NCBI RefSeq assembly: GCF_003334255.1
Contig: NZ_QOWU01000012.1
Source of the DNA: Escherichia coli
GTDB lineage: Bacteria > Pseudomonadota > Gammaproteobacteria > Enterobacterales > Enterobacteriaceae
Length of the DNA stretch: 64,000 bases
Direction: 5' to 3' (one strand)
Shown: positions 43,184 to 45,736 of the stretch, one piece after another
Numbering within the stretch: position 1 is the first letter of the stretch
How the letters are laid out: the number at the start of each line of letters is the position of its first letter
The notes under the pieces: model-generated
Seen by the model: only the letters and a program-made list of their open reading frames with translations
Databases searched by the model: none
What the model was told of the DNA's origin: nothing
Position numbers and translations under genes: made by a program

Positions 43184-43372
43184 CTATGTCATCGATCTTG
43201 TATCACTTTTTTTGCCGGAAGTTGTTTGCATTTTATTAGTTGGATAGGGTTTGTGGATTTTTGCTGGCTGACGGGCAAATAAAGTTTGTTTAATGGTTTG
43301 CTTATCTGCCAGTTGATTAATCACATGGCGGGCTATCTGACCGCCAGCACCAAGAATCAGTACCTTTTTCAT
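43184..43372 (-). pseudogene. Remnant encoding only the N-terminal Rossmann motif of an NAD(P)-binding protein (ymjC/ymjD position)
   Basis: ORF track 62 aa; MKKVLILGAGGQIARHVINQLAD is a GxGxxG dinucleotide-binding start followed by nonsense tail. Confidence 0.45.
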
Positions 43373-43442
43373 GAAAATTATCCCAGATTATTGGCAGCAA
43401 TATGCCAGGCCATATCACTATTGCGGATTTGAATATGTTTCA

Positions 43443-44375
43443 TTACAGAGTTTCCTCAAAGAACGGAGCTAATACTGAAATTGCTTCAGCCACATAGGCT
43501 TTGCCGTCATAAAGATCCATATGGTTTGCGCCTTCAACAATGTGATAGCGTTTATCCTGGCTTGATGCTCGATCGTACAGGTCGTCACTCATCCATTTGC
43601 TCCCTGCCTGGCTGCCCGCCACAATCTGCGTCGGCTGAGTCAGGTACACTTCCGCCATATGGTAAGCATCATAGGTAATAATCTGGTTAAGGCTGCGCAA
43701 AGTAGCGTAACCCGGTGCTGTTGGATACTGCGCGCGAGGGGTGTGGTAATACTCCCAGGCCTGACGCAGTTCTTCGTTCGGCGCATCGGACTCCTTCATT
43801 GGTGCCAGTGGCATAATGGCGTATTCTCCGCTGCTAATATCGCTGGTTCTGGCGTTTGAACCCGCTTCAACGTATGGCAGGGCATCAATAGATTTCACAT
43901 TGTTTTCCCAACCATTACGGAACATCGAACCAATATTGACTGCACTAACGGTACCGATGGCCTTGATGCGGCGATCCTGAATTGCAGCATTGGCTGTATA
44001 TCCTGCACCGGCACAAATTCCCATCGCACCAATTCGGGTATTGTCGACATAAGAAAGCGTTGTCAGGTAATCAATCACGGCACTGACGTCTTCAGTACGA
44101 ATGTATGGGTTTTCTAACTGACGCGGCTCGCCGCCACTTTCACCCTGATAAGATGCGTCATAAGCAATAGTGACAAATCCCTTTTCCGCCAGTTTTTCGG
44201 CATAGGTCCCGGCCGTTTGTTCTTTAACGCCCCCACCTGGGTGAGATACCACAATTGCCGGATATTGACGGGTTTCATCAAATTTTGGAGGAAAATAGAT
44301 CACTGCAGACAAAGAGATGGTTGGATTATTGCTGTTAGTGAAGCTGACTTTATTATTCATCATTCCGTTCCTCAT
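43443..44375 (-). CDS. ycjY: Alpha/beta-hydrolase family protein YcjY
   Basis: ORF track 310 aa (the annotated start may be a few codons downstream); hydrolase-fold sequence. Confidence 0.8.
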   Translation of the reverse strand: MRNGMMNNKVSFTNSNNPTISLSAVIYFPPKFDETRQYPAIVVSHPGGGVKEQTAGTYAEKLAEKGFVTIAYDASYQGESGGEPRQLENPYIRTEDVSAVIDYLTTLSYVDNTRIGAMGICAGAGYTANAAIQDRRIKAIGTVSAVNIGSMFRNGWENNVKSIDALPYVEAGSNARTSDISSGEYAIMPLAPMKESDAPNEELRQAWEYYHTPRAQYPTAPGYATLRSLNQIITYDAYHMAEVYLTQPTQIVAGSQAGSKWMSDDLYDRASSQDKRYHIVEGANHMDLYDGKAYVAEAISVLAPFFEETL

Positions 44376-44500
44376 GGAGTTGTTGGTTCGTTTTAACGGT
44401 TGGTGATATCACTATAGATATTGATCATTAAGTTGATTAGACCCAAAATCATGATTAGACCTATCATTTAAATGATTAATAGATTGTATGGAGATACTGA

Positions 44501-45400
44501 ATGAAGCGTGAAGAGATCGCTGATCTGATGGCGTTTGTCGTCGTTGCAGAGGAGCGTAGCTTCACTCGAGCAGCAGCCCGCCTGAGCATGGCGCAGTCAG
44601 CTTTAAGCCAGATAGTGCGCCGTATAGAAGAACGATTGGGATTGCGGCTTCTGACCCGAACCACGCGCAGTGTTGTACCCACTGAAGCGGGCGAGCATCT
44701 TTTGTCTGTTCTTGGCCCTATGTTGCATGACATAGATTCAGCCCTGGCATCCCTGAGCGATCTGCAGAACCGCCCATCCGGGACAATACGTATTACTACT
44801 GTAGAACATGCAGCAAAAACGATATTGTTACCAGCAATGCGCACATTCCTGAAATCGCATCCTGAAATTGATATTCAGCTCACCATTGATTATGGTTTGA
44901 CCGATGTCGTTTCTGAACGTTTTGATGCAGGCGTCCGTCTGGGTGGGGAGATGGATAAAGATATGATCGCCATTCGAATCGGGCCAGATATACCAATGGC
45001 TATTGTTGGCTCACCGGATTATTTTTCTCGCCGAAGTGTTCCAACGTCAGTGTCACAATTAATAGATCATCAGGCAATTAATTTGTATCTTCCCACATCG
45101 GGTACAGCAAATCGCTGGAGATTAATACGCGGTGGACGTGAAGTTCGTGTTCGCATGGAAGGTCAGCTTTTACTGAATACGATAGACCTGATCATTGATG
45201 CTGCAATTGATGGGCATGGATTGGCGTATCTACCTTATGATCAGGTTGAGCGGGCTATTAAAGAAAAAAAACTGATACGTGTTTTGGATAAATTCACACC
45301 AGATTTACCCGGTTATCACCTGTACTATCCACACCGTCGACATGCTGGCTCGGCATTCTCATTATTTATAGATAGGCTGAAGTATAAAGGTGCTGTTTAG
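44501..45400 (+). CDS. pgrR: LysR-family regulator PgrR (YcjZ)
   Basis: ORF track 299 aa; LysR-type N-terminal HTH (FTRAAARLSMAQSALSQ); divergent from ycjY. Confidence 0.85.
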   Translation: MKREEIADLMAFVVVAEERSFTRAAARLSMAQSALSQIVRRIEERLGLRLLTRTTRSVVPTEAGEHLLSVLGPMLHDIDSALASLSDLQNRPSGTIRITTVEHAAKTILLPAMRTFLKSHPEIDIQLTIDYGLTDVVSERFDAGVRLGGEMDKDMIAIRIGPDIPMAIVGSPDYFSRRSVPTSVSQLIDHQAINLYLPTSGTANRWRLIRGGREVRVRMEGQLLLNTIDLIIDAAIDGHGLAYLPYDQVERAIKEKKLIRVLDKFTPDLPGYHLYYPHRRHAGSAFSLFIDRLKYKGAV

Positions 45401-45736
45401 CACTACTTGCTGATACATTAATTTAATTCTTCTCTTAACGTATTCTCAGTTCCTTTCAACGTTTTGGTCATTTTTTATTCTTCGTACAATGGCGACAGAT
45501 GCTGATTATGATACCGAAAACGGGTTTGAACGTGCGAAGCCCGAACGTAGTGTTCGGAGTTCTATGTGCTTTACCGCATTTTGGAGACTATTATTTACAC
45601 TAAATCTGATTTGATATATTGATACTTAAAACATTTGATGCTTCCTTTGTCACTTTTTTGATGGAAGTTGTTTGCATTTCTTTAAGGCGAAACAAATAAT
45701 TACGCATCAATTTTAATGTCGGTTAGAGGGAAACTT

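Follow-up and report, generated by a model that had tools for sequence, protein, structure and literature searches.

Chromosomal islets of the attL/attR type are bracketed by two direct copies of a repeat, enclose foreign DNA of lower GC content, and correspond in relatives to an empty site with a single copy. Transposons and insertion sequences (IS) also leave a short direct duplication of the target around the inserted DNA, and the duplications made by transposases are 2–14 bp long. The locus described here shares features with both kinds. It lies in a 64,000-nt stretch of the Escherichia coli contig NZ_QOWU01000012.1 (assembly GCF_003334255.1), hereafter the window, in which a ~30-bp motif occurs upstream of mpaA (murein tripeptide amidase; 42379–43107, minus strand) and again upstream of mppA (murein tripeptide-binding protein; 45737–47350, plus strand). 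Between the two motifs are ycjY, encoding an alpha/beta hydrolase, and pgrR (ycjZ), encoding a LysR regulator. We estimate a probability of about 85% that the two motifs are a direct duplication of 30–38 bp of the mpaA–mppA spacer, produced by a ~4-kb foreign cassette inserting in the E. coli lineage. It is a further case of a kind already known, the direct-repeat-flanked islet, here one that duplicated a promoter segment.

Both copies are on the plus strand and follow the pattern TCACTTTTTT(T)G[CC/AT]GGAAGTTGTTTGCATTT. Copy A, the mpaA-side duplicate, is TCACTTTTTTTGCCGGAAGTTGTTTGCATTT (43203–43233, 31 nt) and ends 126 nt from the mpaA start at 43107, while copy B, the mppA-side duplicate, is TCACTTTTTTGATGGAAGTTGTTTGCATTT (45650–45679, 30 nt) and ends 57 nt from the mppA ATG at 45737. 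They contain the same 17-mer, GGAAGTTGTTTGCATTT, at 43217–43233 and 45663–45679. The best local alignment of the two covers 38 nt with ~87% identity (5 of 38 positions are unlike); it includes a weaker extension of 7 nt to the left, to 43196 and 45643, and its right end is GCATTT. The duplication and its boundaries can be read directly from this alignment, and no longer hidden duplication was detected, as the flanks outside the 38 nt were no more similar to each other than shuffled controls. No third match to the 17-mer with up to two mismatches is present in the 64-kb window. By chance, 0.06 matches to the 17-mer would be expected, and none of 100 shuffled sequences had two or more. A preliminary description of the window had reported a near-identical pair of ~30 bp with an exact 17-bp core. 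The pair, with its two matches in 64 kb, is confirmed to be beyond chance; the distances given upstream of mpaA and mppA were correct, and the sites were rightly located with coordinates that were ~1 nt off.

The genome-wide search that the preliminary description had recommended, which is sensitive to matches of ~20 nt or more, gave a median of 2 motif places per E. coli genome and indicated that the motif is not a generic repeat. In a metagenome-wide scan, all Escherichia-like matches corresponded to the copy A context, the copy B context, or an empty site. The matches from outside Escherichia have only the 17-mer in common, and their count is close to that expected by chance for the size of the collection. 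A dispersed intergenic repeat of the REP/BIME/ERIC type is ruled out by the median of 2 places and by the restriction of unrelated matches to the 17-mer. No Rfam family was found for the motif, the lone match being a sub-threshold chance match inside pgrR.

To survey relatives, MpaA was searched against a single genome of each species, which yielded 80 loci. mpaA and mppA are directly adjacent and divergent in five Escherichia species other than E. coli and in ~70 other species of Enterobacteriaceae, from genera that include Citrobacter, Enterobacter, Leclercia, Lelliottia, Kluyvera, Raoultella, Kosakonia, Pluralibacter, and Trabulsiella. The spacer is 182 nt long in Escherichia and mostly 183–190 nt in the other genera, and each of these uninterrupted spacers (~75 species, with no pgrR there) contains one copy of the motif. 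In the window, the segment between mpaA and the end of copy A (43108–43233, 126 nt) and the segment between copy B and mppA (45680–45736, 57 nt) add up to 183 nt, one T more than the 182-nt empty spacer. The extra T is in the T-run of copy A of the window strain. Each E. coli segment is colinear with one half of the single-copy spacer found in other species: the mpaA-proximal half occupies 43108–43202, and the mppA-proximal remainder (45680–45736, plus strand) holds the block AAACAAATAATTA, a −10 candidate AATAAT (45695–45700), and the Shine-Dalgarno sequence. Copy B is still joined to the remaining mppA promoter, and the right neighbor of copy A is cassette DNA. Because the spacers of relatives have a single copy and the two halves sum to one such spacer, the DNA between the copies is regarded as an insertion with a target duplication of 30–38 bp. 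A comparison with genomes lacking ycjY–pgrR had been proposed in the preliminary description, together with the idea of a duplication scar that placed these genes between two copies. The single motif copy in the intact spacers, the exact spacer sum, and the mobile copies of the module described below uphold that idea.

The full cassette, as found in most E. coli, is ~3.98 kb long (L004 958–4934). It contains, in order, an AT-rich end, a gene for an NmrA-type short-chain dehydrogenase/reductase (SDR), genes for two paralogous alpha/beta hydrolases (the second being YcjY), the divergent pgrR, a 31-codon queH fragment, and a short AT-rich end. The K-12-type form in the window (43234–45649) has been reduced to 2.4 kb by two deletions (L004 962–1639 and 1785–2670). 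It consists of the ymjC and ymjD remnants (43184–43441, minus strand), ycjY (43443–44363, minus strand), which is the first gene of the module operon and co-directional with mpaA, pgrR (44501–45400, plus strand), the internal queH fragment (45498–45590, plus strand), and the AT-rich ends. The K-12-type junction was found in ~2295 of 5419 E. coli genomes (~42% of complete genomes), and the edge of the first deletion is ~4 nt from copy A. Through the two deletions the SDR gene lost two-thirds of its length and one hydrolase gene almost all of it, which created the 'genes' ymjC (an N-terminal piece of the SDR) and ymjD (the first ~17 codons of a second hydrolase besides YcjY). The ymjC open reading frame (ORF; 43184–43372) crosses the deletion junction into copy A, and its last ~15 codons are ancestral intergenic DNA including the motif. 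The earlier placement of copy A in a decayed ymjC region is accurate for the ORF annotation of K-12 and inaccurate for most E. coli, in which copy A is intergenic between mpaA and an intact SDR gene.

The GC content of the cassette is 34–50%, compared with 54–56% in the mpaA and mppA flanks. A four-gene module of the same composition (SDR–hydrolase–hydrolase with the LysR gene) was observed on conjugative Klebsiella plasmids with ~79% nucleotide identity and in unrelated neighborhoods. On the chromosomes of Raoultella and Citrobacter koseri, PgrR homologs (87–89% amino acid identity) stand at the head of a longer operon that encodes two additional oxidoreductases. The longer module (L092–L097; Raoultella ornithinolytica and C. 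koseri) is arranged as LysR followed by hydrolase–hydrolase–NmrA SDR–adh_short SDR–Old Yellow Enzyme, and gene content indicates that the E. coli cassette is a truncated version of it. mpaA, mppA, and queH were all absent beside the module in the Klebsiella plasmid, Raoultella, and C. koseri contexts. Judging from its GC content and the mobile copies of the module elsewhere, the cassette is foreign and horizontally acquired. The queH fragment (DADYDTENWFERAKPERSVRCSMCFTAFWRR in L004) is situated between pgrR and copy B and was carried in from a donor in which the LysR gene neighbored queH. As is typical of islet scars, direct copies bracket the insert, homology ends sharply, single-copy empty sites exist, and the insert is foreign and mobile.

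The motif appears to be part of the mppA promoter. When an empty spacer was examined for sigma70-like sites, only TTTGCA-N18-AATAAT was found, reading toward mppA. In all of the 75 species compared, (T/A)TTGCA-N18-AATAAT occurs 31–59 nt from the mppA ATG, always with the 18-nt spacing, and both boxes are located within the best-conserved blocks of the spacer. We infer that the motif corresponds to the −35 box of the mppA promoter and its upstream region to about −57. In the window, the putative sigma70-type promoter spans 45671–45700 (plus strand) with the −35 hexamer within copy B, and the predicted transcription start is at ~45706–45708, corresponding to ~1,393,196–1,393,198 in MG1655. The motif comprises the −35 box TTTGCA and ~20 nt of T-rich, partly conserved DNA upstream of it, and the insertion point is 3 nt downstream of this box. 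Copy A holds an orphan mppA −35 box, TTTGCA, at 43225–43230. The site resembles a sigma70 promoter with an UP-like region in the placement of TTTGCA 18 nt from AATAAT, in the T-rich stretch at about −57 to −47, and in the presence of the boxes and their spacing in 75 species. It differs from the optimum in its 18-nt spacer and in the hexamer matches of 4/6 and 5/6. The Cappable-seq and ROSE supplements have no entry for the mppA and mpaA genes or for the predicted start coordinates, and a literature search for an mppA promoter found none. Three other site types were considered by eye and rejected. GGAAGTT resembles the sigma-E −35 sequence GGAACTT, and no copy has a TCNAA-type −10 sequence at 16 nt; the sigma-54-like GGCAGTGTTGTGCA near mpaA is one base off the proper spacing; and no FNR- or CRP-type dyad takes in the conserved ATCAA.

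The proposed course of events is as follows. The ~4-kb cassette, with the NmrA-type SDR, two alpha/beta hydrolases, PgrR, and the queH fragment, would have entered the mppA promoter and split the mpaA–mppA pair. The target segment duplicated in this event would be the upstream half of the mppA promoter. A plain insertion at that point would part the −35 box from the −10 box. The duplication would keep copy B 18 nt from the −10 box and leave the mppA promoter intact, with copy A remaining as an orphan twin at the other end of the cassette, ~100 nt upstream of mpaA. The intact promoter may be the reason why the duplicated form survived. K-12-type strains later shortened the cassette to 2.4 kb by the two deletions, and in some strains the repeats may have mediated precise loss of the cassette.

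Uninterrupted spacers are also observed directly within E. coli, in 166–173 of 5419 complete genomes with the locus (~160 by a complementary count), or ~3%. About 150 of these empty sites have the GCC form that is seen in other Escherichia species (e.g. ST648 strains; L087, L088). Fourteen are chimeric and combine the left flank of copy A with the GAT interior of copy B (L085, L086). The chimera from strain CP131_Sichuan (L086) is identical to the window for 688 nt from copy B on, and the MpaA and MppA proteins of this strain are the same as those of K-12. The chimeric empty site is also present in the metagenome contigs L131 and L161. Such A/B chimeras are consistent with recombination between the repeats, of which they would be the expected product on cassette excision.

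A different type of evidence for mobility was provided by Escherichia sp. E1V33 (L007), a non-coli Escherichia. Its flanks are 85–91% identical to the window, and its cassette, including both K-12-type deletions, is 97–99% identical. The identity switches at 43190–43207 and 45647–45661, where each repeat has its left edge, and this indicates that a repeat-bounded unit moved between species. From the identity levels, the E1V33 cassette is attributed to a recent interspecies transfer, which could have occurred by a double crossover within the conserved spacer or through a circle that integrated at the motif. A circular or tandem junction was not found: 0 of 5426 genomes contained at least 80% of either synthetic junction, and there was none among the metagenome matches, a weak negative because assemblies rarely capture transient circles. 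As a tentative and rather doubtful extension, the repeat may act as a recombinase-free handle. Recombination between A and B would excise the cassette and restore the mppA promoter, and the cassette with one repeat would re-enter empty spacers, even across Escherichia species. In that case a promoter fragment would act as an attachment site, and control of murein-peptide degradation by PgrR would vary among strains as an on/off trait.

The locus is like attL/attR islets in that two direct chromosomal copies bracket lower-GC foreign DNA with a single-copy empty site in relatives, the E. coli repeats appear able to mediate precise loss, and a repeat-bounded unit has moved between species. It differs in the absence of an integrase or recombinase gene, a tRNA or tmRNA target, and a circular junction in the 5426 genomes. 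In addition, the cassette is only 4 kb, and the repeat is a promoter segment with no known att core. An integrase att site or genomic island was rejected, as the cassette genes are only the SDR, two hydrolases, the LysR regulator, and the queH fragment, no tRNA gene is nearby, and the target is a promoter. The short direct target duplication around the insertion is shared with transposons and IS, but its length is 30–38 bp here. An IS or transposon scar was rejected on the length of the repeat, the lack of terminal inverted repeats at the cassette ends, and the lack of a transposase ORF; transposon- or integron-like or other structured cassette ends were sought at this locus and none was found.

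Several points weigh against our interpretation. A duplication of 30–38 bp is too long to have been made by a transposase, and the cassette has no integrase, tRNA gene, or terminal inverted repeats. Copy A (GCC) and copy B (GAT) could come from different lineages, and the duplication would then perhaps not have been a one-step de novo event. GAT could also be an old E. coli allele and GCC could have come with the cassette, in which case the GAT empty sites would be the ancestral state and not the result of excision. No donor was found for the cassette ends: the plasmid search matched only the four genes (query 112–3729) and left both the queH fragment and the AT-rich left end unmatched. The mppA promoter was assigned by consensus matching and conservation. 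mppA is not among the 'constitutive' promoters of the RpoD holoenzyme (PMC3946193), and its promoter may be weak or activator-dependent, as it is outside that list.

Four blocks of the spacer are conserved across 75 species: GGCAGTGTTGTGCAAAA and ATCAAAT on the mpaA side, the motif (consensus ATCAATTTTCTGTCAGAAGTTATTTGCATTT), and AAACAAATAATTA. In the window the two mpaA-side blocks are GGCAGTGTTGTGCAAAT at 43136–43152 and ATCAAAT at 43163–43169. These blocks, the first written as GGCAGTGTTGTGCAAA(A/T), are the best conserved of the spacer over the 75 species and are located 29–62 nt upstream of mpaA. No match to the sigma70 consensus was found in them on the mpaA strand, and they probably represent the true promoter or operator of mpaA.

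Among the rival explanations, the one that survives best is that both copies are working sites for one transcription factor. An ancestral single site would have co-regulated the divergent mpaA and mppA, and the scar would have been retained since each gene needs a copy. Positions upstream of the −35 box (TCAA.TTT and the AAG in ATCAATTTTCTGTCAGAAGTTATTTGCATTT) are conserved over the 75 species beyond the need of a −35 box. They are intact in both copies, and the differences between A and B (CC/AT and the length of the T-run) fall in poorly conserved columns. An activator using these conserved upstream positions of the mppA promoter is possible, in line with the absence of mppA from the list of activator-independent RpoD promoters, and mpaA and mppA share a pathway. 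However, no factor is known or was found here, and conservation of copy A carries no weight as the E. coli strains are too close. In K-12-type strains the deletion comes within ~4 nt of copy A and the ymjC ORF runs across the copy, so the surroundings do not look like a protected regulatory context. The blocks at 43136–43169, which lie between copy A and mpaA and are better conserved, are more likely to be the mpaA control region, and Salmonella arizonae and diarizonae keep mpaA with the motif cut or lost. We consider this explanation unlikely.

It had also been suggested that the motif is an operator for PgrR, through which mpaA and mppA would be coordinated. pgrR is located between the copies, and PgrR was reported to lower mpaA expression (PMC9928106; regulon list in PMC5934670). 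However, the motif is older than pgrR at the locus, since ~75 species that lack the cassette have the motif once, and plasmids and other chromosomes carry the PgrR module with neither mpaA nor mppA. Systematic evolution of ligands by exponential enrichment (SELEX) placed PgrR and RpoD at the ycjY–pgrR spacer (PMC5934670, PMC3946193), where the SELEX peak of PgrR at this locus is found (ycjY/ycjZ), and the reported regulon consists of ycjG, ycjXF-tyrR, and ycjY-ymjDC-mpaA, with mppA not in the list (PMC5934670). The ycjY–pgrR spacer contains two direct repeats of TGATTAGACC (44434–44443 and 44452–44461, plus strand). Together with ATCATTTAAATGATTAAT, they are almost invariant relative to the Klebsiella plasmid copies, although the whole module is only 79% identical, and the repeat region is the likely, predicted operator region of PgrR. 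No similarity was detected between the motif and this spacer, and the motif as read from its sequence lacks the T-N11-A dyad symmetry of LysR sites. The motif is not considered a PgrR operator because it predates pgrR at the locus, is unrelated to the operator region of the module, and is not among the reported PgrR sites; the proposal is very improbable. As a promoter element the motif is retained for mppA, whose putative −35 box it supplies, and is not supported as an element shared by the two genes with PgrR as the regulator. The cassette resembles LysR-type divergent modules in that pgrR is divergent from its target operon across a conserved, operator-bearing spacer. It is different in that the motif is outside this spacer and is part of the host DNA rather than of the module.

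The least probable alternatives, an ancestral two-copy cassette state with single-copy spacers arising by deletion, for which the chimeric empty sites in E. coli show that repeat-mediated precise deletion seems to occur, or a similarity due to chance or to a dispersed repeat family, are hardly tenable given that the former needs independent precise losses in >15 genera versus one gain and leaves the foreign base composition and plasmid-borne relatives of the cassette to be accounted for, and the latter conflict with the shuffles, the ~2 places per genome, and the outside metagenome matches that share the 17-mer only.

The gene order in the window is tyrR-tpx-ycjG-mpaA-(ymjC/ymjD)-ycjY-pgrR-mppA-ynaI, and the segment is K-12-like E. 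coli. ycjG (plus strand) and mpaA (minus strand) are convergent, and their 3′ ends overlap by 26 nt (42379–42404), an arrangement kept in most of the 80 related loci. Another islet was observed in the mpaA–mppA spacer of Salmonella enterica subsp. arizonae and diarizonae (L024 4847–8001 and L027 4561–8001; 3.1–3.4 kb). It contains three ORFs, of which the middle one encodes a cytolethal distending toxin B family protein (NF011787, E 4e-114). The left junction in L027 is inside the motif, where TCAACTTTCTGCCGGA is followed by TACAG, and the native mppA promoter blocks are absent. The mpaA–mppA spacer looks like a recurrent landing site for islets.

Returning to the insertion of a foreign cassette as the preferred reading, the consequences concern PgrR and mpaA. 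The reported operon is ycjY-ymjDC-mpaA. The cassette operon and mpaA run in the same direction, with no terminator-like site between the SDR gene and mpaA. Control of mpaA by PgrR through read-through from the inserted foreign operon is therefore the simplest reading. If this is true, the link between PgrR and peptidoglycan recycling would be E. coli-specific and strain-variable. The composition of the module suggests that the native role of PgrR is to control a small-molecule catabolic or detoxification operon rather than cell-wall recycling.

A repeat in the best-studied bacterial genome now has an explanation, and the locus offers a naturally occurring case of a promoter insertion that would have survived as the upstream half of the promoter was duplicated. 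PgrR, named for the regulation of peptidoglycan recycling, is the product of a foreign LysR-operon module, which split the otherwise universally adjacent mpaA–mppA pair only in E. coli and one relative. Its effect on mpaA is most simply a by-product of the upstream co-directional module rather than an ancient regulatory design, and would be absent from ~3% of E. coli and from other enterobacteria.

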